Source: Candidatus Poribacteria bacterium (GTDB lineage Bacteria; Poribacteria; WGA-4E; WGA-3G). From it: DNA of 64,000 bases. A program made the translations under genes and the position numbers. Each line of letters begins with the position of its first letter. The first letter of the stretch is position 1. Of this stretch, positions 6,112 through 64,000 are shown piece after piece. The notes below the pieces were generated by a model. It saw nothing but the letters and a program-made list of their open reading frames with translations. It was not told the origin of the DNA and did no database searches. Location: NCBI GenBank assembly GCA_022828145.1, contig JAJEJA010000009.1, positions 31,254 to 95,253 on the forward strand. Reading direction: 5' to 3'.

Positions 6112-6154
6112 TTTATGCTCCTTTTATGTTGACTATAAAAAATCTAAACAAACT

Positions 6155-6183
6155 CGGTAGGTTCGGTTTCCTAACCGAACCGG
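6155..6183. repeat. Palindromic intergenic repeat family A (CGGTAGGTTCGGTTTCCTAACCGAACCGG)
   Basis: The same 29-30 nt hairpin element recurs at 18073, 18235 and four times at 42377-42594. Confidence 0.8.
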
Positions 6184-6218: not shown

Positions 6219-6260
6219 CTTCCAGCCTTCCAGCCTTACTCCCTTCCAGCCTTCAACCTT
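6219..6260. repeat. Short tandem CTTCCAGCCTT-type repeats x3
   Basis: cttccagccttccagccttactcccttccagccttcaacctt. It shares the CTTCCA core with the octamer array at 11541. Confidence 0.6.
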
Positions 6261-6291
6261 TAAGTTTTATACACTAATTATTGAAAATAGT

Positions 6292-9507: not shown

Positions 9508-9610
9508 GTAGGTCGGGTAGAGCGAAGCGCCAATAAAATATTAACTGGCGACATGATAGACACAATCAATACGTGTCGGGTTTCGTTCCTCTACCCGACC
9601 TACATTTTTT
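9508..9610. repeat. Inverted-repeat element family C (GTAGGTCGGGTAGAGGAACGAAACCCGACA) followed by a T-run
   Basis: Left arm gtaggtcgggtagag at 9508-9522; right arm tgtcgggtttcgttcctctacccgacctac at 9574-9603, then tttttt. The same family forms a perfect 35-bp inverted repeat at 59482-59575. Confidence 0.7.
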
Positions 9611-11427: not shown

Positions 11428-11540
11428 TCAATTCCTCCATATTTTATTTCTCAAGATATACTAACACAAATTTACGATTGTTGCAATCAATTTCATGACA
11501 ATACCTTCATCAACATTCAACATTTTGTTAGATTGTGTCC

Positions 11541-11612
11541 CTTCCAATCTTCCATTCTTCCAATCTTCCAATCTTCCAATCTTCCATTCTTCCAATCTTC
11601 TATTCTTCCAAC
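11541..11612. repeat. Octamer microsatellite (CTTCCAAT/CTTCCATT) x9, flanked by an 18-bp direct repeat
   Basis: Nine consecutive 8-bp units. gttagattgtgtcccttc occurs at 11527-11544 and again at 11633-11650. The array sits in the pckG upstream region. Confidence 0.85.
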
Positions 11613-11657
11613 CTTTCTTTGTATCACCTTCAGTTAGATTGTGTCCCTTCATATCGG

Positions 11658-18072: not shown

Positions 18073-18102
18073 CCGGTAGGTTCGGTTTCCTAACCGAACC
18101 GG
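18073..18102. repeat. Repeat family A copy
   Basis: ccggtaggttcggtttcctaaccgaaccgg, embedded in a longer hairpin atgaacaa...ttcat. Confidence 0.8.
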
Positions 18103-18234: not shown

Positions 18235-18264
18235 TCGGTAGGTTCGGTTTCCTAACCGAACCGA
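18235..18264. repeat. Repeat family A copy flanked by a 29-bp direct repeat
   Basis: tcggtaggttcggtttcctaaccgaaccga. The direct repeat tctatctattac(aa/gt)aaat(t)ccaatccattg lies at about 18207-18234 and 18298-18328. Confidence 0.75.
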
Positions 18265-28781: not shown

Positions 28782-28784
28782 CTT

Positions 28785-28846
28785 AATAGTAGTAGGCATA
28801 CTCCGTGTGCTGTTCTCTTAATAGTAGTAGGCATACTCCGTGTGCT
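28785..28846. repeat. Repeat family B (AATAGTAGTAGGCAtACTCCGTGTGCt hairpin) x2 immediately after the purF stop
   Basis: Two direct copies at 28785-28811 and 28820-28846. The same family recurs at 49441 and three times at 54265-54365. Confidence 0.8.
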
Positions 28847-28856
28847 ATCCTCAACT

Positions 28857-41923: not shown

Positions 41924-42184
41924 TCAAACTTCCGACTCATACAATGCTTGTAATAATGCATCAACATCGGTGGTGTTGCTTGCTTTGTTAAACAGATCTA
42001 CCAAACGATCATGGTCCTGAATAGATTCAAGTGTCTGCTTTACAAGTTGTATATCGCTTGACGGAATACTCCCAATAAGCACTCTCAAAATATGTGTGAT
42101 AAGATATTTACGTTCTCTTTCTCTTCTTAAATGTTCTTCAAAGGAAAAATGTTCAATATAGGTAAAGGGAGATTCTTGCATCAT
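41924..42184 (-). CDS. Small hypothetical protein (86 aa)
   Basis: GGAGG SD upstream. It is preceded by a consensus minus-strand promoter that is part of the inverted E module. Confidence 0.4.
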   Translation of the reverse strand: MMQESPFTYIEHFSFEEHLRRERERKYLITHILRVLIGSIPSSDIQLVKQTLESIQDHDRLVDLFNKASNTTDVDALLQALYESEV

Positions 42185-42288
42185 TTCCTCCGATATTAGT
42201 TTCGGCGTACCTATCCATCAGAAACTTCACGATTTCATCAAATTGTGCCATGTTATGTGTTCCGCCTTTCGGACAAGTACTTTTATTG

Positions 42289-42318: not shown

Positions 42319-42357
42319 GGGAAGTTTTTGCCACTCTATTTGTCTGAATCGCGGAGG
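42319..42357 (-). repeat. Inverted copy of the upstream module E (tccgcgattc(a/t)gacaaatagagtg(g)caaaaactt)
   Basis: Revcomp of 42320-42355 = tccgcgattcagacaaatagagtggcaaaaacttcc; this matches the 42839-42872 part of E1 at 34 of 35 aligned positions (one indel). Together they form roughly 40-bp inverted flanks around the repeat island. Confidence 0.75.
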
Positions 42358-42363
42358 ACGTGG

Positions 42364-42545
42364 TAATACCCCCAGGCCGGTAGGTTTGGTTTCCTAACCG
42401 AACCGGATTCTACGCGAAAACCTTAATACCCCAGGCCGGTAGGTTTGGTTTCCTAACCGAACCGGATTCTACGCGAAAACCTTAATACCCCAGGCCGGTA
42501 GGTTTGGTTTCCTAACCGAACCGGATTCTACGCGAGAACCTTTAT
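42364..42545. repeat. 59-bp tandem direct repeat x3, each unit containing a family-A-like hairpin (ccggtaggtttggtttcctaaccgaaccgg)
   Basis: Unit: taataccccaggccggtaggtttggtttcctaaccgaaccggattctacgcgaaaacct. The hairpin cores start at 42377, 42436 and 42495, giving a 59-bp period. The units are near-identical, so these are not CRISPR spacers. Confidence 0.85.
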
Positions 42546-42564
42546 AAACGCAAATGAAGCAAAG

Positions 42565-42594
42565 CCGGTTCGGTTGGGAAACCGAACCTACCGG
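42565..42594. repeat. Inverted family-A-like copy terminating the tandem array
   Basis: ccggttcggttgggaaaccgaacctaccgg is the revcomp of ccggtaggttcggtttcccaaccgaaccgg. Confidence 0.8.
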
Positions 42595-42634
42595 CCTGGG
42601 GAAATCTGATTTTTCAAACTCACGTTAAATATAG

Positions 42635-42780
42635 AAGCACAATCTAACAGAATGTGCTACGGCAGTGTGAAGATGGATGGTGTGGGGGGAAGGATAATGA
42701 TGGATGAAAGGGGTTGGAGGAAGAAGCACAATCTAACAGAATGTGCTACAAAGAAAGGCACAATCTAACAGAATGTGCTA
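42635..42780. repeat. Repeat family D: three copies of the hairpin AGCACAATCTAACAGAATGTGCTAC
   Basis: Copies at 42635-42660, 42725-42748 and 42757-42780. The stem is AGCACA/TGTGCT with an 11-nt loop. Copies 1 and 3 are followed by ggcagtgt(g/c)aag. Confidence 0.8.
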
Positions 42781-42837
42781 CGGCAGTGTCAAGTAGGTTA
42801 GGAACATGAGCCTCTTAAAATCCGCGAAATCTGTGAA

Positions 42838-42925
42838 ATCCGCGATTCTGACAAATAGAGTGCAAAAACTTTACACACCCCACCCGTATTATATTATTGA
42901 CACTCACAAATAGGTGTGGTAATAT
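42838..42925 (+). promoter_or_regulatory. Upstream module E1 plus sigma70 promoter for lnt-prfB
   Basis: atccgcgattctgacaaatagagtgcaaaaactttacacaccc (42838-42880), then TTGACA (42897-42902), 17-nt spacer, TAATAT (42920-42925). A near-identical module precedes the GGGPS gene at 57731. Confidence 0.6.
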
Positions 42926-42947: not shown

Positions 42948-44528
42948 ATGGTAAGAACTTTGAGTTTTGTAAAACGTTATCGTTATCTACTTGCAGGCAG
43001 TTCAGGGATTCTCTTGTTTTGTAGTTTTCCTAATGTCAACTTCTTTCCACTGGCGTGGGTCGCATTAATTCCTTTATTAATCGCACTTGAGACGGGAGTG
43101 AGTCGGAAATCCTCATTTTTGATGGGGTACATAACAGGATTGGTTTTTTTCGCGGGTCTATTGTTAGCAATTGTTCTGCTATATCCTTATGCACACATCC
43201 TAACAACCTTACTCGGTTATACACTCTTAGTAGGTTATACTGCACTCTATTTTGCAGTCTTTGCAGTATTAGTCCATATTTTGCCATGGCGGACAGGCAT
43301 ATTATACCCTACTGCTGTCGCTTCAATCTGGGTTGGTTTAGAATGGATCAAAGGTTGGCTCTTAACCGGATTTCCGTGGGGGAATATCGGATATTCACAG
43401 TGGAACTTTGTTCAAGGAATTCAGATTGCATCTATCACCGGTGTTTACGGAATCAGCTTTATAGTTGTTTTCTTTAATGCAGGAATTGCGAAGTTAATCG
43501 TTAATATAGACAGATGGCGCGATGAACTGATAACTGTCATAGTGCCGTGTTTGTTAACGATAGTGTGTATTACCTACGGTTTTGTGGTCATAAATAGGCA
43601 TGATAATACAGAAAGCAGTCTACAGGTTGCGCTTGTACCTGGTAATATCTCACAACTTGAGAAATGGCAAAGATCGAATTTTCCAAGAATATTCGCAAAG
43701 TACCTCAACTTGTCAAAAAAAGCTGCGTTAAAAAAACCGGATATAATTGTCTGGCCTGAGACCGCTGTAAGCGGAGATGTGTTATCAGGCAAATTACCAA
43801 ACTACAACAAACGCTTTAAGGAATTCCAAGTGCAGATCGGGAACATACCTATGCTTATCGGAGCGACTGATCTTGATGCATACAACGATCTTTACAACCG
43901 TGTCATATCGGTATCTTCTGACAGTGAGATCGTTGGCAAATATGCGAAAATGCACCTCGTGCCGTTTGGAGAGTATGTACCATTAGCTGACTTTTTACCA
44001 AACTTTATCCAATTTCAACCTTATGAACACGGCAAGACGTTAGATACGTTACCAATTGTAAATGTTCAGCAACCAAAAGATGGCAATTTAAAGGTTGGAA
44101 CATCAATATGCTTCGAATCGGCGTTTCCAAATCATTTTCGCAAGTTCGTGAAAAAGGGGGCAGATGTAATGGGGATTCTGACCAACGATGCTTGGTTTAT
44201 CGGAACTGCATTCCCTGAACTTCACTTAGCAATGGCACCGATGCGGGCAGTAGAGAACAGAATCGCTGTTTTCAGATGTGCAAATGGAGGATATACATGT
44301 GTCGTTGACAAGTATGGAAGAATAAAAAGACCGATGGTAACACCCCAACAAACAGAAGACCAATTCATAAACGCGGAAATAGATCTTAAAGAAGGAAACC
44401 AGACACTTTACACACGCTATGGCGATTGGTTACCTATTCTCTGTGTCGTGTTTTCTATCGTCAGTTTAACAGCAGTACGAATACTCGGTTTAATCTCATC
44501 AATAACGCAATCAACGAAATCAAAATAA
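42948..44528 (+). CDS. lnt: Apolipoprotein N-acyltransferase
   Basis: Polytopic N-terminal region plus a C-terminal CN-hydrolase domain (...IIVWPETAV..., ...CFESAFP...). Start ATG 42948 was chosen because the track start at 42897 lies inside the promoter. Confidence 0.8.
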   Translation: MVRTLSFVKRYRYLLAGSSGILLFCSFPNVNFFPLAWVALIPLLIALETGVSRKSSFLMGYITGLVFFAGLLLAIVLLYPYAHILTTLLGYTLLVGYTALYFAVFAVLVHILPWRTGILYPTAVASIWVGLEWIKGWLLTGFPWGNIGYSQWNFVQGIQIASITGVYGISFIVVFFNAGIAKLIVNIDRWRDELITVIVPCLLTIVCITYGFVVINRHDNTESSLQVALVPGNISQLEKWQRSNFPRIFAKYLNLSKKAALKKPDIIVWPETAVSGDVLSGKLPNYNKRFKEFQVQIGNIPMLIGATDLDAYNDLYNRVISVSSDSEIVGKYAKMHLVPFGEYVPLADFLPNFIQFQPYEHGKTLDTLPIVNVQQPKDGNLKVGTSICFESAFPNHFRKFVKKGADVMGILTNDAWFIGTAFPELHLAMAPMRAVENRIAVFRCANGGYTCVVDKYGRIKRPMVTPQQTEDQFINAEIDLKEGNQTLYTRYGDWLPILCVVFSIVSLTAVRILGLISSITQSTKSK

Positions 44529-49422: not shown

Positions 49423-49440
49423 TATGTCAAAAAACTATTA

Positions 49441-49470
49441 TATAGTAGTAGGCACTCTCCGTGTGCCGTC
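49441..49470. repeat. Repeat family B copy after the lolE-like stop
   Basis: tatagtagtaggcactctccgtgtgccgtc. Confidence 0.75.
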
Positions 49471-49481
49471 AACGTTGAAGT

Positions 49482-54257: not shown

Positions 54258-54264
54258 GAATATT

Positions 54265-54365
54265 AATAGTAGTAGGCACACTCCGATGTGCCGTTTTTGC
54301 ATAGTAGTAGGCACACTCCGATGTGCCGTTCTGGCATAGTAGTAGGCACACGCCGTGTGCCGTCA
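54265..54365. repeat. Repeat family B x3 in tandem after skp
   Basis: Three copies of (a)atagtagtaggcacac(t/g)ccg(a)tgtgccg. The first is followed by a T-run, so it is terminator-like. Confidence 0.8.
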
Positions 54366-54417
54366 GATGATACCTTGATATTGTAAGATTTCACCTGTTT
54401 CAATGAGGAAACTATAT

Positions 54418-55552: not shown

Positions 55553-56407
55553 TTGACAATGCGGACGTTGTTAACGTATGTTGAACTTGCCAGGCCTTTG
55601 AACGGTGTGATCGCATTTATTTCTACTTGGTTAGGTGGCATATTCGCGATAGGCAGCACACTCAATTCATTTTTAGAAGTAAAGTTATTATATGTTTCTA
55701 TTGCCTCACTGTTACTACTCTCCGCAGGCAATGCAATAAATGATTATTGTGATTATAACATTGATTGCCATAACAGGCCTGATCGTCCACTCCCTTCAGG
55801 TAGAATCCGTAGAAGAAATGCACTAATATTCGCCATAACGCTTATCGGACTCGGTATTGCACTTGGTGTGTTAGTTAATCTATATGCGGTTTTTGTAGCA
55901 ATATTGGTGTCTATGCTTCTCGTGAGCTATGCTCTCATTCTAAAACGTACACCTATCTTAGGAAATTTGGTTGTCGGTATTCTTACAAGTCTGACGTTCA
56001 TTTCTGGTGGCATAGCAGTCGGTTCAGTACATAGCACCATCATACCTGCTATTTTTGCCTTTCTATTTACAACAGCAAGGGAGATTGTCAAAGACCTTGA
56101 GGATATTGAAGGAGATAAAAGAGAAAACATCAAGACACTTGCCAATCTCAATCCGCGTCTGGCAATCATCATGGCATTGAGTTTTATGTTCTCTGTGATC
56201 ATATTTAGTCCTATTCCCTATCTGCTTGGACTTTATCCGTGGCAATATTTGGTGACAATCTTACTTGGCGTTGATCTTGTCCTTATCTGCTTGGGAATTC
56301 AGCTCGTGAAGAACGTCTCAAAAGACGGTTATGCAAAAATACAACGGTGGATGAAATGGGACATATTCGTAGGTTTAGGTGCAATCTATTTTGGGATCAT
56401 ATATTGA
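55553..56407 (+). CDS. UbiA-family prenyltransferase, digeranylgeranylglyceryl phosphate synthase-like
   Basis: 284 aa, polytopic. NAINDYCDYNIDCHNRPDRPLPSGRI closely parallels the archaeal DGGGPS motif [21 protein letters not shown]. A second Asp-rich motif KDLEDIEGD is present. Confidence 0.65.
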   Translation: MTMRTLLTYVELARPLNGVIAFISTWLGGIFAIGSTLNSFLEVKLLYVSIASLLLLSAGNAINDYCDYNIDCHNRPDRPLPSGRIRRRNALIFAITLIGLGIALGVLVNLYAVFVAILVSMLLVSYALILKRTPILGNLVVGILTSLTFISGGIAVGSVHSTIIPAIFAFLFTTAREIVKDLEDIEGDKRENIKTLANLNPRLAIIMALSFMFSVIIFSPIPYLLGLYPWQYLVTILLGVDLVLICLGIQLVKNVSKDGYAKIQRWMKWDIFVGLGAIYFGIIY

Positions 56408-56446
56408 CAAAAGGGAACGACGATTCATTTCTCGTCGGAATAGATA

Positions 56447-57679
56447 GTGAAAGACTACACCAAAGTGATAGAGTTCTTAAACAGCACGACACCAAACATT
56501 GAGCATGCACTTCGCTTTATAAATACCTCTCAAACTTCATCCTTAACAGACGAATTGCTTAAAACCTGCAAGGTGTTCGCGTCAGGATGGAGACAGATTG
56601 ACGGTGTAATGTTGATGAGACAGATGGAAGGGCATGATTCTGATTATCGTATCCTTGTAAGTGCAACTACTGAAAGAAGTCTAAGGGAACTACTCCTCAC
56701 TTTTCCAAGAAGTTCAGTTGGAATGTTTTACCTGACAAACGATTGGATTGAAAGCAGAGTACTGGATCTGTTTGATGGTGAGAAGGTTAGTGTAGGATCA
56801 GAGGTATGTTTCGTTGGCACAAAAAAAGGCGGTACTACAGCAGCAGAACAGAAGACATTGAATAAAAAGAAAGATGCAATCAACAGTAATCTTGGTCATC
56901 TAACATCCATAAAGGGTAGATTCGAGAATTCTCAGTTTCTTATTGAAGGGGAAATGATGGTAGAACGCGCTTTCTCCGATGGATTACCTATTGAAAACGT
57001 GCTTTATACAAACGAATTTGTTGCGTCTGCTGCAGGTAGAGATTTTTTGATGAAAGTTTTTGCCGAAAATCTATCAATATATCTAACAAGAGATAGCCTG
57101 ATGGGTTCACTAACAACCACTCGTCCGATTCCCTCGATTATAGTATCCGTGCATCTAAATTATCCTACATTCTTAGATAAGGATGGATGTATGAATTTTC
57201 ATTTTAGTCAAGACTGTATACTGCTGATAATTGAAAACGTTCAGAATCCTGACAATCTTGGGATGACGTTACGCACGGCTGATGCTGCAGGTGTTTCCGC
57301 AGTACTGATAAGTGGAGAAGGGGCAAATCCGTTTCATAAAAACTGTATCCGTGCATCGCGTGGTGCTGTTGGTAGGATTCCCATTTTCTATGTTCCTTCA
57401 ACGAAACCAGCGATCGAGAAACTCAAAGCAAGCGGTTGGCATATCATCGGAGCAACAGCAAAGACAGAAAAGGAGCTTTACACATCGACTTATGAGAAAC
57501 CGATTGCAGTTGTTGTTGGTAATGAGCATAGTGGTTTAACAGAGGAGACGCGAAACCATTGTACAGAATTAGTCAGTATACCCATGGCAACGGGTCAATC
57601 CTCTCTGAATGTTGGCGTTGCTACCGGGATTCTACTATATGAATTAAACGCTAATCCTGTGAAAGTAAACCTGAGATGA
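56447..57679 (+). CDS. SPOUT (TrmH/SpoU-family) RNA 2'-O-methyltransferase with an N-terminal extension of roughly 160 aa of unknown function
   Basis: The C-terminal 250 aa carry the SpoU pattern (...LLIIENVQNPDNLGMTLRTADAAGV..., ...VVVGNEHSGL..., ...SLNVGVATGILLYEL). Confidence 0.65.
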   Translation: MKDYTKVIEFLNSTTPNIEHALRFINTSQTSSLTDELLKTCKVFASGWRQIDGVMLMRQMEGHDSDYRILVSATTERSLRELLLTFPRSSVGMFYLTNDWIESRVLDLFDGEKVSVGSEVCFVGTKKGGTTAAEQKTLNKKKDAINSNLGHLTSIKGRFENSQFLIEGEMMVERAFSDGLPIENVLYTNEFVASAAGRDFLMKVFAENLSIYLTRDSLMGSLTTTRPIPSIIVSVHLNYPTFLDKDGCMNFHFSQDCILLIIENVQNPDNLGMTLRTADAAGVSAVLISGEGANPFHKNCIRASRGAVGRIPIFYVPSTKPAIEKLKASGWHIIGATAKTEKELYTSTYEKPIAVVVGNEHSGLTEETRNHCTELVSIPMATGQSSLNVGVATGILLYELNANPVKVNLR

Positions 57680-57730
57680 GCCAGAACACCTTCCGCGTCT
57701 TCCGTGCCAGCTATGTTAACTGGCGCGTCA

Positions 57731-57818
57731 TCCGCGATTCTGACAAAAGGGTGCCGAATAACTTTACACACCCACTATATTATAAGAATTTGACAAATTC
57801 GTCCGATGGTGTTAAAAT
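57731..57818 (+). promoter_or_regulatory. Upstream module E2 plus sigma70 promoter for the GGGPS gene
   Basis: tccgcgattctgacaaaagggtgccgaataactttacacaccc (57731-57773), then TTGACA (57790-57795), 17-nt spacer, TAAAAT (57813-57818). Confidence 0.55.
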
Positions 57819-57891
57819 AATTTAGTTTTGATATATAATCGTGTAAGTAAATTCCCGCAAGGATCAATGACATTTTGACAGTAAGGACCGG

Positions 57892-58644
57892 TTGCAATTG
57901 AGATCAAATTGTATTCTAAGATATCTAAAAACAGTAATTAAAGAAAAGGACGCAGGATACTTCATCTTGATTGATCCGGAAATGTGTGATGTAGAAAAGA
58001 CTGCAAAACTCGCCACTACCATAGAGAACGCAGGTGCAGATGCAATTCTACTTGGGGGTAGTCTATTGACCCAAGAATTAGATCCAATTGCCGCCTCTAT
58101 CAAGGCAGAAACCGAGTTGCCAATTATTCTATTCCCTGGCGATTCCATGCATCTCACACCGCATGCAGACGCACTCCTGTTTATGAGTCTCATCAGTGGA
58201 CGAAACCCAAACTATCTTATCGGGGAACAGGTAAAAGCAGCACCATGGATCCAGAAATATGGATTAGAACCCATACCAACGGGGTACATGTTGATTGATG
58301 GTGGGAGCAGAACCTCAGTAGAATTCATGAGTGGCACCGTTCCTATTCCGAGAGACAAACCTGACATCGCTGCACCCCATGCCCTGGCAGCAGAATACCT
58401 CGGTATGCAGATGGTCTATCTGGAAGCAGGAAGTGGGGCAACACTCCCTGTGCCAAACGCGATGATTTCTGCTGTGAAAGAACAGATCACAACACCATTG
58501 ATTGTGGGGGGAGGCATAAGATCGCCTGAAACAGCAGCTGAAAAAGTAAGAGCAGGAGCAGATTTCATAGTCACGGGTAACATACTTGAAGAAACAGGTT
58601 CTATTGACCTTATCAAACAGTTTGCCATCGCAATTCATGGTTAA
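57892..58644 (+). CDS. Geranylgeranylglyceryl/heptaprenylglyceryl phosphate synthase family (GGGPS/PcrB)
   Basis: 250 aa; ILIDPE..., ...YLEAGSGA..., ...IVGGGIRSPETAAEKVRAGADFIVTGN... match PcrB/GGGPS (compare B. subtilis PcrB FKLDP, YLEYSG, FYGGGIKD). Confidence 0.75.
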   Translation: MQLRSNCILRYLKTVIKEKDAGYFILIDPEMCDVEKTAKLATTIENAGADAILLGGSLLTQELDPIAASIKAETELPIILFPGDSMHLTPHADALLFMSLISGRNPNYLIGEQVKAAPWIQKYGLEPIPTGYMLIDGGSRTSVEFMSGTVPIPRDKPDIAAPHALAAEYLGMQMVYLEAGSGATLPVPNAMISAVKEQITTPLIVGGGIRSPETAAEKVRAGADFIVTGNILEETGSIDLIKQFAIAIHG

Positions 58645-58712
58645 CTATTGCAAATGACTTACCCTAAGAATATAATTTGAAAACAATCATTTAGAACGTG
58701 AGGAATTACATT

Positions 58713-59441
58713 ATGTCAGAAAACAGAGAGGTAGTTATTGAAATTGGAACTGAAAACGATAAATCTGATTCTGAGACTTTTGCAACACCAGATGATTCTG
58801 ACAATACTACCGAGATAGAAAATAAGAATGACGAACCTACTGTAGAAACATTGCTTGCAGAAATTGAAGAACTCAAAGAATCTTTCAAAAAACAGATTGA
58901 GGAAGTTGCAGAATCAGAGAGAGCACAATATGAAACTGAACGGGAACGCTTGTTGCGCACCGCTGCAGAAGCTGAAAATACAAAAAGACGTGTTGAAAAC
59001 GATGCTAAGAAGCAGCTAAAATTTGCAAATAAGAATATCATAGAAGGAATTATTCCTGTATTGGATAGCCTTGAAGCAGCAATTAATAGCACTGATGAAA
59101 AGGTTGAAACTGAAGAACATAATCCAGATATGTCTAACTTCAGTGAGGGCGTAGAATTAGTACATAAGCAACTATTAGATGTTCTAAGATCACATGGACT
59201 TACGCCAATAGACTCTGCAAGTGGTTCATTTGATCCAAACCAGCATGAAGCTGTCTTTGCAACAGAATCAGATGAAGTACCAGAGGGGAATATAATTGAG
59301 GAATTCAGACGAGGATATCTGCTGCATGAACAAGTGATCCGTGCCGCACAAGTTGTCGTGTCAACGGGAAAGAAAAAGGAAGAACCCTCCGATGAAGTAA
59401 CCGAAGAAATCATAATCGAAATTTCAACTGAGGAAGAATAA
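58713..59441 (+). CDS. grpE: Nucleotide exchange factor GrpE
   Basis: 243 aa with an acidic N-terminus, coiled-coil and the C-terminal GrpE domain (...IDSASGSFDPNQHEAV...). Confidence 0.85.
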   Translation: MSENREVVIEIGTENDKSDSETFATPDDSDNTTEIENKNDEPTVETLLAEIEELKESFKKQIEEVAESERAQYETERERLLRTAAEAENTKRRVENDAKKQLKFANKNIIEGIIPVLDSLEAAINSTDEKVETEEHNPDMSNFSEGVELVHKQLLDVLRSHGLTPIDSASGSFDPNQHEAVFATESDEVPEGNIIEEFRRGYLLHEQVIRAAQVVVSTGKKKEEPSDEVTEEIIIEISTEEE

Positions 59442-59481
59442 ATGTAATACCAAATCTAATTGATTAATTAACATTATTGTC

Positions 59482-59575
59482 TTTTCGTAGGTCGGGTAGA
59501 GGAACGAAACCCGACATGGAAGTCTTTATCTAATCCTACGTGTCGGGTTTCGTTCCTCTACCCGACCTACGAAAA
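59482..59575. repeat. Perfect 35-bp inverted repeat (family C) with a 24-nt spacer, between grpE and dnaJ
   Basis: ttttcgtaggtcgggtagaggaacgaaacccgaca ...24 nt... tgtcgggtttcgttcctctacccgacctacgaaaa. Each arm also contains an internal gtcgggt/acccgac hairpin. Confidence 0.85.
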
Positions 59576-59624
59576 TAATACTATATAATCATTTAGAAAT
59601 GGTATAACTTAGGTAGGAAAACAC

Positions 59625-60734
59625 ATGGAACAAAAACGCGACTATTATGATGTTTTGAACGTCAGCAGAGATGCAGATGAGAACGAAATTAAAAAAGCAT
59701 ATAGAAAATTAGCAATAAAATATCATCCAGATAAAAATCAAGGTGATAAAGACGCCGAAGACAAATTCAAAGAAGCCGCCGAAGCTTATGACGTGTTGAG
59801 AACACCAGAAAAACGACAGCGATATGACCAATATGGACATGCTGGACTTGAAGGGACAACATCCGGATACGGGTATGGCGTAAACCTTGACGATATATTG
59901 AGTGAGGTGTTTGGAGACGTATTAGGGGGTTTTGGAAGAACAAGCAATAGACCCAAACCGGGACGGAGCATACCGTATAACCTTGAAATCACACTTGAGG
60001 AAGCATATTACGGTAAGGAGGAAACAATTGAAATACCCCGAATTGAATCTTGTCCTGATTGTAACGGCAGTGGCGCAGAAAGAGGATCAACTATTGATAC
60101 GTGTCCTCAGTGCTATGGACAGGGACAAGTAACACAATCACAAGGTTTCTTTACAATGTCCCGAACATGTCCACGATGCCATGGAGAAGGTAAAATTATC
60201 AAGAACCCATGCAGAAACTGTAACGGACAAGGTAGAATAAGAGTCAAAAAAGAACTCAAGATAAAAATAGATAAAGGTGTTGACAACGGTACTAAGTACA
60301 GCTTGCGTGGACAGGGTGAAGCAGGTACTTTAGGAGGACCCCCCGGAGACCTACTGGTTGTAATCCACATAAAGCCACACCAAACTTTCGTCAGAGAGGG
60401 AAACGATTTATATACTTATGCAAAAATTTCGTTCATCCAAGCAGCACTTGGAACTACTATTGAAGTTAAAAGTATTGATGGTGTGCAGGAATTAGATGTG
60501 CCAGCAGGAACACAATACGGAGACCAATTGCACATTAAAGGGAAGGGAATGCCAAGATACAGAAGTTCTTATTACGGCGACCTTGTTGTTCAGATAGAGA
60601 TAGAAACACCAAGAAAACTCACGGCACAACAGAGAACACTGTTAGAACATTTTGATGCCCCTGAGTATAAACCTGACGGATCTGAGAACAGTAGTTTCTG
60701 GGAAAAACTTTTTGGCAATCCAGATGATAAGTAG
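59625..60734 (+). CDS. dnaJ: Molecular chaperone DnaJ
   Basis: 369 aa with a J domain (HPD), G/F region, four CxxCxGxG zinc-finger repeats and the C-terminal domains. Confidence 0.9.
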   Translation: MEQKRDYYDVLNVSRDADENEIKKAYRKLAIKYHPDKNQGDKDAEDKFKEAAEAYDVLRTPEKRQRYDQYGHAGLEGTTSGYGYGVNLDDILSEVFGDVLGGFGRTSNRPKPGRSIPYNLEITLEEAYYGKEETIEIPRIESCPDCNGSGAERGSTIDTCPQCYGQGQVTQSQGFFTMSRTCPRCHGEGKIIKNPCRNCNGQGRIRVKKELKIKIDKGVDNGTKYSLRGQGEAGTLGGPPGDLLVVIHIKPHQTFVREGNDLYTYAKISFIQAALGTTIEVKSIDGVQELDVPAGTQYGDQLHIKGKGMPRYRSSYYGDLVVQIEIETPRKLTAQQRTLLEHFDAPEYKPDGSENSSFWEKLFGNPDDK

Positions 60735-60751
60735 TCAATTCTTACTGAAAA

Positions 60752-61636
60752 ATGAAATGGATACAGATTACAATAAAAACATCTCATGAAGCATCTGAAG
60801 CCGTGGCAAATCAATTATTTGAAATGCGGTCACTCGGTGTTGAGATAACTGAAGACAACAAAAATGGTACACTATTAACTGCATATTTCCCGCTGGATGA
60901 CAAAATCAATTCAAAAGTTAACACACTAAGAACCTTCCTGTCAAAACTACCGGCATGGGGAATCCAACCGAATCCAGCAAAAATTGAACTAAAAAGAATT
61001 GAGTCAGAAAAATGGACAGAAGCGTGGAAGGCAAATTTCACACCTCAAAAAGTAGGAGAAAAGATACACATCGTTCCAACATGGTATGAACAACCTATCA
61101 ATGAATCAGACATCGTAATAAGACTTGATCCTGGCATGGCGTTTGGCACAGGTTACCATCCAACAACACGATTATCTCTACAAATGTTGGAGAAAGCGAT
61201 CAGACCGAATCAGATTGTGGCAGATGTAGGAACTGGCTCTGGTATTTTAGCAATTGCTGCTATCAAACTGGGGGCGAAACATATTGACGCGATCGAACTT
61301 GACCCGACAGCAATACCAGTAGCAATGACCAATTTCGCTAATAACAGTGTCTCAAAAAAAATCACATTACATGAAGCAGATGGGCTCCGGACTGTTAAAC
61401 GAAAATACGATCTTATAGTCGCAAACATCCTAACAAAAGCGATCATACCATTGATTCCATACTGTCGTGATAGATTAAATTCTGATGGAAGCCTAATCTT
61501 ATCCGGTATTCTGGAATCAGAACAGGCCGACGTTCAAGAGACTTTAAAAGAAAACGGTTTAGAATGCGTTTCTGTTACACGGCAAGCAGAGGATAAACTA
61601 ATGTGGGTAGCAATGTTAGCGAGATTCCTTTGCTAA
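60752..61636 (+). CDS. prmA: Ribosomal protein L11 methyltransferase
   Basis: 294 aa with the PrmA N-terminal domain and the SAM-MTase motif VADVGTGSGILAIAA. The dnaJ-prmA adjacency is common. Confidence 0.8.
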   Translation: MKWIQITIKTSHEASEAVANQLFEMRSLGVEITEDNKNGTLLTAYFPLDDKINSKVNTLRTFLSKLPAWGIQPNPAKIELKRIESEKWTEAWKANFTPQKVGEKIHIVPTWYEQPINESDIVIRLDPGMAFGTGYHPTTRLSLQMLEKAIRPNQIVADVGTGSGILAIAAIKLGAKHIDAIELDPTAIPVAMTNFANNSVSKKITLHEADGLRTVKRKYDLIVANILTKAIIPLIPYCRDRLNSDGSLILSGILESEQADVQETLKENGLECVSVTRQAEDKLMWVAMLARFLC

Positions 61637-61873
61637 TCCATGACAAAGATTACATCTACCGAGATTGAGATGGGGCATGATAGGTGATTTCTCATCACCA
61701 TGTTTATGACAAGTCAGACACGCTGCATCTTCAGAAGATGCTCGATGTTCCTCAATATTGGATCTGGCAGGTGCTGCATTAAAAAAAAGAATTACCATTA
61801 CAATCGCGAATATTAAACCGATAACGCAGACAATATACATTACCACTTTCGGGTTAGCTTGATCGGTAGGCAT
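61616..61873 (-). CDS. Small membrane-anchored dihaem c-type cytochrome (two CxxCH motifs), NapC/NirT/NrfH-like N-terminal architecture
   Basis: 85 aa with an N-terminal TM helix, then CLTCH and CNLCH. It is convergent with prmA and overlaps its 3' end by 21 nt. Confidence 0.4.
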   Translation of the reverse strand: MPTDQANPKVVMYIVCVIGLIFAIVMVILFFNAAPARSNIEEHRASSEDAACLTCHKHGDEKSPIMPHLNLGRCNLCHGLAKESR

Positions 61874-61928
61874 GTGATATTTGAAATTCCTTACTATAGT
61901 TGTTTGTTAAATATGTGCCATTGACAGC

Positions 61929-62753
61929 CTATTCAAAGAATGGGAAAAGGATCGGTATGTTCTCGGCAGTGAGTCGGGAACCGTACTCACTGGTCTCAAA
62001 AACTTCAGCAAAGTTTGTATCAAGACCTACGCTGACACCGTATAGATTCGTCAACAGACTTCTATGGTCTTCGGCAATCACATTGAAGCGGTTACGCATG
62101 CGATCTGAAAGCCATTCGCGTCTGGCATCATCGCTCTCAGGCACTGAATCCAGTGTTCCGCTGTTGTATGGAAGCCATTCATAGAACTGAGAAGTATGAC
62201 AATGGAGCATATCAATTTTCTGTTCAATGACTGCATCAATGTTTATCGCTATATCTGGACAAAATGCATTCGGTTTCTTAAAACCATCACTAAGATACAT
62301 AATCACAGGATTCCGCTGCATGTGTGGTGTCAGGGCACATACATTTGGAACTGTAACCATATAGGCAGCATCTTGAACCAGAATTGACGTATAACGGTGG
62401 TCTGGATGATAATCATTCGGTCGGTGAGTCATGATTAGGTCAGGTACAAACTCACGAATCAGACGAATAATCTGAAAGCGATTCTCTAAAGTAGGAACAA
62501 GTTCTCCATCATGATTGTCAAGTAATTCATAATCGATACCGATAACAGCCGCTGCAGCTTGTGCTTCAGCATTTCGTCTTTGTGCTAAAGCACCACCACC
62601 CATCTGATGGTGTCCTGCATCGCCGTTGGTAACGGAAACGAATTTAACATGGTGTCCGTTCTGTTTATATAGAGCTGCAACACCGCCTGCTTTAATATCA
62701 CAATCGTCTGGATGTGCACCGATAACCATAACCCGTATCACTTCGCTGTTCAT
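61929..62753 (-). CDS. PIG-L/LmbE-family N-acetylglucosaminyl deacetylase
   Basis: 274 aa with the N-terminal VIGAHPDDCDIKAGG motif and downstream HPDH. Confidence 0.75.
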   Translation of the reverse strand: MNSEVIRVMVIGAHPDDCDIKAGGVAALYKQNGHHVKFVSVTNGDAGHHQMGGGALAQRRNAEAQAAAAVIGIDYELLDNHDGELVPTLENRFQIIRLIREFVPDLIMTHRPNDYHPDHRYTSILVQDAAYMVTVPNVCALTPHMQRNPVIMYLSDGFKKPNAFCPDIAINIDAVIEQKIDMLHCHTSQFYEWLPYNSGTLDSVPESDDARREWLSDRMRNRFNVIAEDHRSLLTNLYGVSVGLDTNFAEVFETSEYGSRLTAENIPILFPFFE

Positions 62754-62820
62754 ATATTAAACTCACATTAAAAGATGTTTGTGTAGAATTAAAATCATAC
62801 CGCTATCACAGGAAAAACTA

Positions 62821-63288
62821 ATGAATTCTTGGAAAGTTGAAGTTACATATAAATCAGAAATTACAGACTTTGTTGGCAAAGAGATTCTTGAAGATATTGC
62901 GGACCTTGGCATAGATGGTGTTGAAGCGGTCCGTACTGCATCAATATATTGGATTGAAGGAACACTTAACACCGAACACATACACAGAATTGGCAGCGAA
63001 CTCCTTGCTGATCCGATTACACAAGTGTTTAAGCTGACTGAAGAAAAAGAAGAAACAGCCGATTGGACAATAGAAGTCCAATACAAACCGGGTGTAACAG
63101 ATGCTGTTGGCGATAGTACTGTCAAGGGTATCAAAGATATCGGTATCTCCTCTGTCAACAATGTTCGGACAGGCAAAAAGTTCTGGTTAAGTGGAAACCT
63201 AAGTAATCAAATCATAGAAAATATTGCACAACGTCTTCTAATGAATGATGTAATCCAGACCTTTTCTTATGTAGAACCACATTTCTAA
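62821..63288 (+). CDS. purS: Tandem double-PurS-domain protein (FGAM synthase PurS-like x2)
   Basis: Two repeats, WKVEVTYKSEITDFVGKEILEDIADLGIDGVEAVRTASIYWIEG and WTIEVQYKPGVTDAVGDSTVKGIKDIGISSVNNVRTGKKFWLSG, each following the PurS pattern (V.V.LKPGVLDPQG.....L..LG...V.DVR.GK.F.L). Start chosen at the ATG with an AGGAAA SD. Confidence 0.6.
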   Translation: MNSWKVEVTYKSEITDFVGKEILEDIADLGIDGVEAVRTASIYWIEGTLNTEHIHRIGSELLADPITQVFKLTEEKEETADWTIEVQYKPGVTDAVGDSTVKGIKDIGISSVNNVRTGKKFWLSGNLSNQIIENIAQRLLMNDVIQTFSYVEPHF

Positions 63289-63309
63289 ATCCAGCGCGAT
63301 AAAAGCGTC

Positions 63310-64000
63310 CTAAAACAGAGGTAATCCTTGCGCTTCAGTATAGACCGAATATAGTGACTGACTACCTGTCATAAACAACCTGTTTCGTTTTGTTCCTCCG
63401 AAACATAAATTTGAACAGATTTCTGGTAAGTGAATTTTACCTATCAGTGTTCCATCTGGAGCGAATATATGTACACCGTCATATCCATCTCCCACCCAAC
63501 CGGCACTTGACCATAGATTGCCGTCTATATCACACCTGATACCATCTGCTATACCTGGGGACATATCACAAAATACCTGTTTGTTCTCTAAGTGTTCACC
63601 GTCTACAACATCAAAAACATATATATTTCTTGGACTTCCCTCTTTATGTATTGCACCCGTATCTACAACATACAGTTTTTCATAATCTGGTGAAAAGCAT
63701 ATTCCATTCGGTTTCTCAAGCTCCGTTGTAACAACAGTCGCTACTCTTGCTTCTGGATTCAGACGATATACTGCAGTGGGTAGTTCAAAATCTGCGACGT
63801 GTCCTTCGTAATTCAGCATAATACCGTATCCTGGATCGGTAAACCATATATGTCTATCTGCATGCACAGCAACATCATTTGGTGCATTGAGCCGTTTACC
63901 ATCATAGTGATCCATCAACACAGAAAGCGTTCCATCGTATTCAGTTCGAGTAACGCGTCGTGTGCCGTGTTCACAACTGATAAGTCTTCCTTGTCGGTCT
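63310..64000 (-). CDS. SMP-30/gluconolactonase/LRE-like beta-propeller protein. The N-terminus lies beyond the window end
   Basis: ...NAPNDVAVHADRHIWFTDPGYG... and a ...GNLWSSAGW... repeat pattern. The ORF is open to position 64000. Confidence 0.6.
   Translation of the reverse strand, partial: DRQGRLISCEHGTRRVTRTEYDGTLSVLMDHYDGKRLNAPNDVAVHADRHIWFTDPGYGIMLNYEGHVADFELPTAVYRLNPEARVATVVTTELEKPNGICFSPDYEKLYVVDTGAIHKEGSPRNIYVFDVVDGEHLENKQVFCDMSPGIADGIRCDIDGNLWSSAGWVGDGYDGVHIFAPDGTLIGKIHLPEICSNLCFGGTKRNRLFMTGSQSLYSVYTEAQGLPLF

Follow-up and report, generated by a model that had tools for sequence, protein, structure and literature searches.

The subject of this analysis is a short repeated module in a 64,000-nucleotide (nt) stretch of DNA from a Candidatus Poribacteria bacterium (the window, to which all coordinates without a locus number refer; comparison loci carry L numbers). 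The module, treated here as the putative end of a mobile element, stands before two genes assigned by Pfam, lnt (LNT_N and CN_hydrolase) and a PcrB-family GGGPS gene (57892-58644, +), and the flanking genes also include a SpoU methylase and a UbiA prenyltransferase. The first-pass annotation of this DNA had described a 43-nt module that occurs three times and is followed each time by a near-consensus sigma-70 promoter, and a search for the module core combined with a promoter scan bore this out. The core ATCCGCGATTCTGACAAA was matched three times in the window (chance expectation 0.08), exactly at 42838-42855 (+, copy A) and 57730-57747 (+, copy B) and with two mismatches at 42339-42356 (-, copy C). 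Downstream of each copy stand near-consensus hexamers whose spacer falls within 16-18 nt (10/12, 11/12 and 12/12 for A, B and C). The length was revised, as the repeat runs farther upstream through tandem 9-mers (approximately 57676-57773 for copy B), and the gap to the promoter of the plus-strand copies, given earlier as about 15 nt, was corrected to exactly 16 nt from the terminal ACACCC to the -35 hexamer. The second half of the module, AACTTTACACACCC, was found in the window only at 42867-42880 and 57760-57773, that is, in the two plus-strand copies, and is lacking from the inverted copy C; a further match with two mismatches at 44404, within lnt, looks like chance.

Copy B (57676-57773, +) is a one-ended fragment comprising the right end of an element, with TCCGYG 9-mers, the core and a terminal repeat (GTGCCGAATAACTTTACACACCC, 57751-57773). 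Its local alignment to the right end of a 779-nt element described below begins at ATGAGCCAGAA, and no left terminal repeat belonging to it was found in the window. The upstream SpoU/TrmH gene ends inside element-derived sequence (TGA stop at 57677-57679). A 16-nt spacer of flanking DNA (ACTATATTATAAGAAT, 57774-57789, +) separates the element tip from the -35 hexamer of the GGGPS promoter-like site, TTGACA-17-TAAAAT (57790-57818, +; 11/12, TG-extended).

Copy A (42818-42880, +) is the right end of a composite element and contains 9-mers (AATCCGCGA/AATCTGTGA/AATCCGCGA), the core and a terminal repeat (GTGCAAAAACTTTACACACCC, 42860-42880). It is followed by a 16-nt spacer (CACCCGTATTATATTA, 42881-42896, +), the first 5 nt of which (CACCC, 42881-42885) are a tandem duplication of the copy A tip (CACCC CACCC), and then by the lnt promoter-like site, TTGACA-17-TAATAT (42897-42925, +; 10/12, TG-extended). 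Copy C (42319-42357, -), the decayed left end of the same composite element, retains the core and the inner terminal repeat GTGGCAAAAAC. Relative to intact paralogous junctions in L014 and L049, which read ACACCC-19 nt-TTGACAATCCACC, it has a deletion of approximately 25 nt in which the tip TTTACACACCC and about 19 nt of flank are gone, and because of this deletion the -35 hexamer adjoins the repeat directly. The copy C promoter-like site, TTGACA-18-TATAAT (42318-42289, -; 12/12), is directed toward small open reading frames (ORFs) at 42251-41924; promoter, leader and gene 5' end (MAQ[F/Y]DE...) form a paralogous unit that is also present twice in another Poribacteria genome, and in L014 and L049 all three are again found with the element. 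The composite interior (42358-42817), between inverted ends A and C that lie 501 nt apart, holds other Poribacteria repeat modules, namely three 59-nt tandem units with an inverted copy and three copies of GCACAATCTAACAGAATGTGCTAC. Taken together, 42319-42880 is best described as one composite element with two outward-facing ends (A and the decayed C), and 57676-57773 as the one-ended remnant B.

Anatomy and mobility of the element family

A scan for exact matches to the 18-mer ATCCGCGATTCTGACAAA, restricted to one genome per species, placed it in more than 111 stretches of the genome collection among the matches listed, nearly all of them in metagenome-assembled genomes (MAGs) of Candidatus Poribacteria. 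At least 16 Poribacteria-labelled assemblies were represented among the first 80 loci listed; the few matches in other taxa were short contigs with shared 9-mer context or were chance-like. Window positions 55940-63937 were 97.8% identical to a contig of the Poribacteria MAG jk18x34bins.64. By this distribution the module is a phylum-wide dispersed repeat of sponge-associated Poribacteria. Altogether 113 non-redundant ends were collected from approximately 1 Mb of Poribacteria DNA, and about 8 ends were present in 170 kb that had been gathered independently of the repeat.

The ends share a terminal inverted repeat of approximately 22 nt with the consensus GTGACAAAAACTTTACACACCC (GGGTGTGTAAAnTTTTTGTCAC ... 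GTGACAAAAAnTTTACACACCC). In the copy alignment the terminal 22-mer, GTGACAAAAA(C)TTTACACACCC, was the sole part conserved in all ends, by which they are recognisable as GGGTGTGTAAA/TTTACACACCC; it also bounds elements with quite different interiors. The subterminal ATCCGCGATTCTGACAAA is present in many members, not all, and is preceded by 2-4 tandem 9-mers of the form (A/T/C)TCCG(C/T)G(T/A)N, which probably act as transposase-binding sites. A logo of 105 ends carried information only at positions -22 to -1, and the 16 nt that adjoin the tip showed no target-site consensus. Within one genome, a 779-nt element is present in five copies that are near-identical from |GGGTGTGTAAACTTTTTGTCAC to GTGACAAAATATTTACACACCC| and unrelated outside, and similarity among near-identical copies ends exactly at ACACCC (GGGTGTG at the other end). 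The longest ORFs of the 779-nt member (159 and 97 amino acids [aa]) had no Pfam match at or above the curated cut-off; the 97-aa ORF gave two weak, chance-level matches and the 159-aa ORF none. Short forms consist of inverted pairs whose tips point outward, an arrangement seen in 32 pairs against 6 that face inward, and their modal distance is 125-215 nt. The elements are mostly 130-780 nt long, and inverted ends were found on elements of 130-3942 nt. Of the intergenic copies (n=126), 91 have a gene start as their downstream neighbour and 35 a gene end.

Evidence for transposition came from duplications and empty sites. Thirteen elements of 216-3942 nt stand between direct repeats of 8-9 bp that match perfectly or differ at a single position, and two further duplication-flanked elements are present in L195 and L196. 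The SGL-cupin spacer is empty in L197 (CTATACTT; …atataCCTATACTTgaaaat…), holds a 335-nt element with the duplication CTATACT(T) in L195, and in L196 holds a different, 130-nt element at the position orthologous to that of L195, with its own duplication ATCTCTATT. The junctions occupied in the window are likewise empty in L192 and L194 for lnt and in L112, L198 and L199 for GGGPS. The family therefore combines the features by which a MITE (miniature inverted-repeat transposable element) is recognised, namely terminal inverted repeats, a duplication of constant length, empty sites, small size without a transposase gene and many copies. A search for the autonomous element among terminal-repeat pairs 0.9-4 kb apart yielded only a cargo-carrying element of 3.9 kb (L023, 3503-7445), which has the family's inverted ends and is flanked by a perfect duplication of 9 bp, AAAGTTCGA; it contains cargo genes, for a 336-aa protein and others, as well as a DDE_Tnp_4 transposase fragment, and looks like the product of composite mobilisation by two MITE ends. 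Multi-copy ISAs1-like and IS701-like transposases were considered as parents and rejected, as their ends differ from those of the family. With high confidence, the module is read here as the end of a non-autonomous, MITE-like DNA transposon family of Candidatus Poribacteria.

Promoters beside the element ends

Judged by their orthologues, the lnt and GGGPS promoters are ancestral and not part of the element. In the lnt orthologues L192 (protein 91% identical; promoter sequence TTGACACTCACAAAGAGGTGTGGTAATAT) and L194 (76%), TTGACA...GGTGTG.TAATAT is found almost base for base without the element, and hexamers and spacing are kept throughout L192-L194. In L193 (78%) an element end lies 11 nt from the -35 hexamer (GTATAAATATA, L193 9937-9947); the window junction equals that of L193 plus the 5-nt CACCC tandem duplication, which gives the family-typical 16 nt. 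For GGGPS, a metagenome scan returned mostly distant homologues, L112 alone being close enough for use. The orthologues L112, L198 and L199 (74-78%) have no element, the SpoU stop lying 0-7 nt before TTGACAAATT…TAAAAT/TACAAT; L197 (90%) retains an ACACCC remnant only, other DNA abuts at the orthologous junction in L196 (92%), and L195 (94%) holds a decayed element copy. The arrangement TTGACAAATT-17-TAAAAT/TACAAT is kept in every GGGPS orthologue examined (L112 and L195-L199), including the four without the element, and the spacer ACTATATTATAAGAAT is kept in orthologues with and without it (L195, L196 and L197). Since both promoters are present in orthologues that lack the element, the element arrived beside older promoters. 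Between the window and L195, the element region differs by about 9 mismatches and a 12-nt gap in 98 nt, compared with 0 mismatches in 55 nt of the SpoU 3' end and about 5 in 127 nt of promoter and leader; the element diverges faster than its flanks, and the module is therefore under no visible constraint.

These comparisons bear on the two readings offered by the first-pass annotation. According to one, the module is a dispersed promoter-carrying repeat that includes the -35 and -10 hexamers and spreads complete promoters. Dispersal was confirmed by the recurrence of the exact 18-mer. The promoter-carrying part has in its favour that each of the three copies in the window precedes a strong consensus promoter, that the copy C promoter, leader and gene start recur with the element (L014 and L049), and that some members contain an internal, outward-facing promoter-like site. 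It fails in that similarity among near-identical copies stops at ACACCC, that flanks, spacers and non-consensus promoter positions are unrelated between copies, and that the same lnt and GGGPS promoters occupy empty orthologous sites, which contradicts it for copies A and B. As a general account of the family it is very unlikely.

According to the other, the module is a shared transcription factor site or UP element that co-regulates lipoprotein N-acylation and ether-lipid synthesis, both envelope-lipid functions; a regulator of this kind would recognise GTGACAAAAACTTTACAC and control lnt and GGGPS together. The equal distance to the -35 hexamer at both genes would fit such an operator, as would the action of both products on envelope lipids and the weakly palindromic inner terminal repeat (GTGnAAA...TTTnCAC). 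It is nevertheless highly improbable, since the module stands before genes of unrelated function at more than 100 sites, is absent from two of three lnt and four of six GGGPS orthologues (the other two of the latter holding a decayed copy or ACACCC only), is bounded by target-site duplications, outpaces its flanks in divergence and lies upstream of the position of an UP element. The link between module and promoter that the annotation had noticed is real, as the spacing statistics below demonstrate; its cause differs from the one proposed.

Promoter matches of at least 10/12 within 80 nt were found at 31 of 106 ends (29%), compared with 38 of 676 control windows, each of 80 nt and taken at random upstream of genes (5.6%). 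In 21 of the 31 promoter-matched ends the -35 hexamer started at an offset of 15-17 nt past ACACCC, and the controls were flat. A count that made no use of a promoter motif gave the same position: across the 113 ends, 22 of 41 occurrences of TTGAC were at offsets 15-17 (p = 3e-19), and TTG was at these offsets in 43 ends. TAnnnT at a spacer of 16-18 nt accompanied 29 of these 43 in-register TTG ends, compared with 21 of 89 for TTG at other offsets. When ends with related flanks were collapsed, 105 independent sites were left, among which 20 of the 36 TTGAC occurrences lay at offsets 15-17 (p = 5e-18); TTG lay there at 41 sites, against about 7 expected. Overall, approximately 39-40% of ends have a promoter in register; as only one end per insertion can face a promoter, about 40% of ends corresponds to most insertions. 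Nine of the 13 duplication-flanked elements have an in-register promoter at exactly one end, and none has one at both. The genes downstream of in-register ends belong to ten unrelated Pfam families (ABC permease, class IV aminotransferase, PhyH, HEPN/NTase, GspG, ArgC, GAPDH, FNR-type reductase, MR/MLE and Schlafen-AlbA_2).

A reading of the module as a generic intergenic repeat that lies near promoters by chance would agree with the share of ends that lack an in-register promoter and with the 35 of 126 intergenic copies that point at gene ends. It can hardly be reconciled with the clustering of TTGAC at offsets 15-17, with the promoter frequencies just given (29% and 5.6%) or with the preponderance of gene starts over gene ends downstream, and its probability is close to nil. 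The annotation had held that occurrence at dozens of loci, irrespective of gene function and without adjacent promoters, would mark the module as a generic repeat; the first half was found, the second was not, as about 39% of ends have a promoter at the fixed distance.

We infer that the register reflects promoter-proximal target choice, for three reasons: elements with intact duplications are already in register, two different members struck one orthologous site (L195 and L196), and mere tolerance of insertions predicts a one-sided edge with a long tail and not a peak about tenfold over background. On this reading, the 9 bp preferred as target by the transposition machinery would span about -51 to -43, counted from the transcription start. 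The element landed 16 nt upstream of the GGGPS -35 hexamer, and at lnt 11 nt upstream, with a later 5-nt duplication of the tip. A more specific version, in which the family homes to sigma-70 promoters through a complex that reads bound RNA polymerase or sigma factor, or the -35/UP DNA itself, is a tentative suggestion, somewhat short of an even chance; the 9-bp target would then end about 7 bp upstream of the -35 hexamer, placing the tip 16 bp away. Any effect of the element on transcription is conjectural.

Several points weigh against this account. A serious rival is exaptation or selective retention, by which insertion would be near random and ends lying 16 nt upstream of a -35 hexamer would be kept. 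The retained terminal repeat, at about -73 to -52, would occupy the position of a class I activator site and could favour the promoter; examples of such a role are the binding of a regulator or of a protein derived from a transposase, a bent A-tract, and insulation. Retention would explain the sharp spacing peak, the preservation of exactly the promoter-proximal part in one-ended remnants such as copy B, and the CACCC duplication that turns the 11-nt gap of L193 into the 16 nt of the window. It would also explain why, among the near-identical 779-nt copies that could be tested at both ends, only one of four is clearly in register. A fifth copy (L070), of which only the right end was seen, has no in-register promoter there; these copies are presumably recent and mostly out of register, so that a target preference, if real, is not absolute. 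About 60% of all ends have no in-register promoter, and the lnt gap itself differs between L193 (11 nt) and the window (16 nt). The promoters are predictions from consensus matches, and most loci were gathered via the 18-mer, which makes per-genome copy numbers extrapolations. "Promoter-carrying" is not wrong for every member, since in some of them TTGTCA-18-TATAAT lies inside the element, facing outward, at about 95 nt from the tip and the copy C promoter belongs to a larger paralogous unit. Finally, the approximately 1 Mb of Poribacteria DNA yielded neither an autonomous element nor a cognate transposase with the family's terminal repeats, and mobility is argued from duplications and empty sites.

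Retention is countered by the in-register position of nine of 13 elements whose duplications are still intact, by the independent strikes of two different elements on one orthologous 9-mer, by the decay of the module faster than its flanks, with deletion in L197 or replacement in L196 while the promoter was kept, and by promoters that work, or at least are conserved, in species that never had the element. It is considered unlikely, and the account as a whole, in which MITE-like ends lie near older promoters at a spacing set by promoter-proximal target choice, is considered likely. The three "promoter cassettes" are transposon ends and not a regulon that links lnt and GGGPS, and the family explains much of the intergenic repeat clutter of Poribacteria together with some rearranged gene ends (the SpoU/TrmH C-terminus and stop). 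For a DNA element it is unusual that the tip stands at a fixed 15-17 bp from an external -35 hexamer, as it does at about 40% of ends. If target choice is correct, this would imply a mechanism that reads promoters and would provide, for an uncultured phylum, a natural means of marking active promoters; if selection is correct, the terminal repeat would have a position-dependent effect on transcription.

Two further arrangements were considered and set aside. A tandem promoter using TTTACA of the terminal repeat as its -35 hexamer is available only at copy A (TTTACA-16-TATTAT), not at copy B and not generally. A CRP/FNR-type operator does not fit the GTG...CAC span (17-18 nt) and the poorly conserved palindrome seen on inspection of the logo.

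Neighbouring genes and other repeats

The mechanical longest-ORF start of lnt is a TTG at 42897, which is the -35 hexamer itself. Homologues of lnt cover 93-95% of this mechanical ORF, starting about 17-37 codons later, and therefore the true start is probably the ATG at 42949. On the other side of the composite element, at 41924-42251 (-), an 86-aa ORF (no Pfam match) and an upstream 32-aa ORF appear to be the parts of a single gene that an insertion of about 45 nt and a frameshift have split in the window; the paralogous family to which it belongs reads MAQYDEMMQESPF... in L014. The cumulative GC skew has its minimum at approximately 42000, and genes lie on the minus strand before 41684 and on the plus strand after 42897. 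A replication origin at about 42 kb, as the skew minimum and strand switch might indicate, was considered and rejected, the DnaA boxes being unclustered (22 matches over the whole window where 21.5 would be expected, and none of them in the spacer). No tRNA gene was found in the whole window, and an Rfam scan of the whole window gave no family match at the gathering score.

The order UbiA, SpoU, GGGPS (PcrB) at 55553-58644 is kept in four of the five Poribacteria loci examined (L195-L199); within it, about 3.8 kb of extra DNA precedes GGGPS in L196, and in L198 no UbiA gene was called upstream and SpoU is truncated (190 aa). The neighbours UbiA and GGGPS are two enzymes of archaeal-type ether-lipid synthesis. 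Directly after the GGGPS region, grpE and dnaJ follow in all five loci (L195-L199), and in the window they are separated by DNA that contains a perfect 35-nt inverted repeat, TTTTCGTAGGTCGGGTAGAGGAACGAAACCCGACA (59482-59516 and 59541-59575); a third identical arm 50 kb away (9570-9603) points to a further repeat family.

Several other repeats are interspersed with the element family. At 42364-42546, the 59-nt unit occurs 3.1 times in tandem (97% identical), with the inverted copy adjoining at 42562-42613. The unit is built on a hairpin, CCGGTAGGTT(T/C)GGTTTCCTAACCGAACCGG, that is also intergenic at 6154-6182, 18073-18101 and 18235-18263, and in L005 a MITE is inserted within a unit of this type, with the duplication TTTCCTAAC. 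The three copies of GCACAATCTAACAGAATGTGCTAC lie at 42636-42793 and inverted ones at 11520-11545 and 11626-11650; elsewhere this repeat is found inside elements, just upstream of an internal ...gtcaTATAATgatccagaaacccc promoter-like site directed toward the tip (L023, L034, L037, L052 and L058). Tandem 8-nt repeats, CTTCCAAT or CTTCCAGC, occupy 11533-11620 and 6219-6262 with about 11 and 5 units, respectively; similar 8-nt arrays abut element ends in L020 and L037 and resemble cyanobacterial short tandem repeats. A dispersed hairpin family, ATAGTAGTAGGCACACTCCGTGTGCC, is present at 28782-28851, 49438-49472 and 54262-54366, often as tandem 35-nt units directly after genes. The CBDAUH genome (L028, L032, L050, L085 and L087) contains a multi-copy ISAs1-like insertion sequence and two other multi-copy transposase families, and its 18-mer is followed by other terminal modules (e.g. 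...CCAAAATCGACTTTTGAATGCCTCTG), with promoters that, by eye, follow at approximately 17-20 nt.

Comparison with known systems

In the literature searched, neither Poribacteria MITEs nor insertion at a set distance from -35 hexamers was described. A 2024 review of MITEs in prokaryotes gives their location as "normally intergenic", mostly intergenic, in 3' untranslated regions or clustered (PMC10969869, section 3.3), and its section on insertion-site preference does not mention a fixed -35 distance; a large MITE survey (PMC11602168) does not mention Poribacteria. The transposon family is undescribed and strikingly associated with promoters. It resembles bacterial MITEs, including the Correia/NEMIS elements of Neisseria, ERIC, RUP, MITEAba12 and cyanobacterial MITEs, which are likewise short and noncoding with inverted ends and target-site duplications, occur in many, mostly intergenic copies that vary between related genomes, nest or cluster with other repeats and sometimes lie beside promoters. 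It differs from described MITEs in its end sequence, its 8-9 bp duplication, its subterminal 9-mer arrays and the fixed distance of 15-17 nt between its tip and an external -35 hexamer. Correia elements duplicate TA, and they hold promoter parts inside the element, whereas the promoter of the Poribacteria family lies outside.

Modularity is shared with BIME/REP of enterobacteria and BOX of pneumococcus, which also have variable sub-repeat numbers and shared ends with different interiors. REP/BIME sequences, which are not known to have target-site duplications, lie mostly after genes and are tied to RAYT tyrosine transposases, unlike the present family, which has duplications and is oriented toward gene starts; it does not belong with REP/BIME. 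In one Poribacteria genome, elements that we take to be ISAs1-like, a putative label from a reading of the protein N-terminus, have 9-bp duplications and the ends AGGGTTATTTAGTTTTAT, which share GGGT...GTTTT with the MITE ends; the resemblance is weak (about 11-12 of 21 positions), no copy was seen with MITE ends, and the insertion sites lack the same geometry. Like UP elements and class I activator sites, the module lies upstream of the -35 hexamer, where the terminal repeat would cover about -73 to -52. Unlike an UP element, it is not conserved at orthologous promoters, does not form an A/T tract between -60 and -40 and has duplications at its borders.

As a working analogy only, the geometry recalls Ty3, Ty1, Tf1 and Dictyostelium TRE5-A, which integrate upstream of a promoter or transcription start, with a short and defined distance to it. 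These are retrotransposons whose integrase is tethered to transcription factors, and such integration spares genes while using open or protein-marked DNA. Unlike them, the Poribacteria family is a bacterial DNA element with inverted repeats, for which a tethering partner is hypothetical. If promoter homing does occur, the family would be a prokaryotic counterpart of the promoter-tethered integration of Ty3 and Tf1, by which Poribacteria could rewire or insulate hundreds of promoters.

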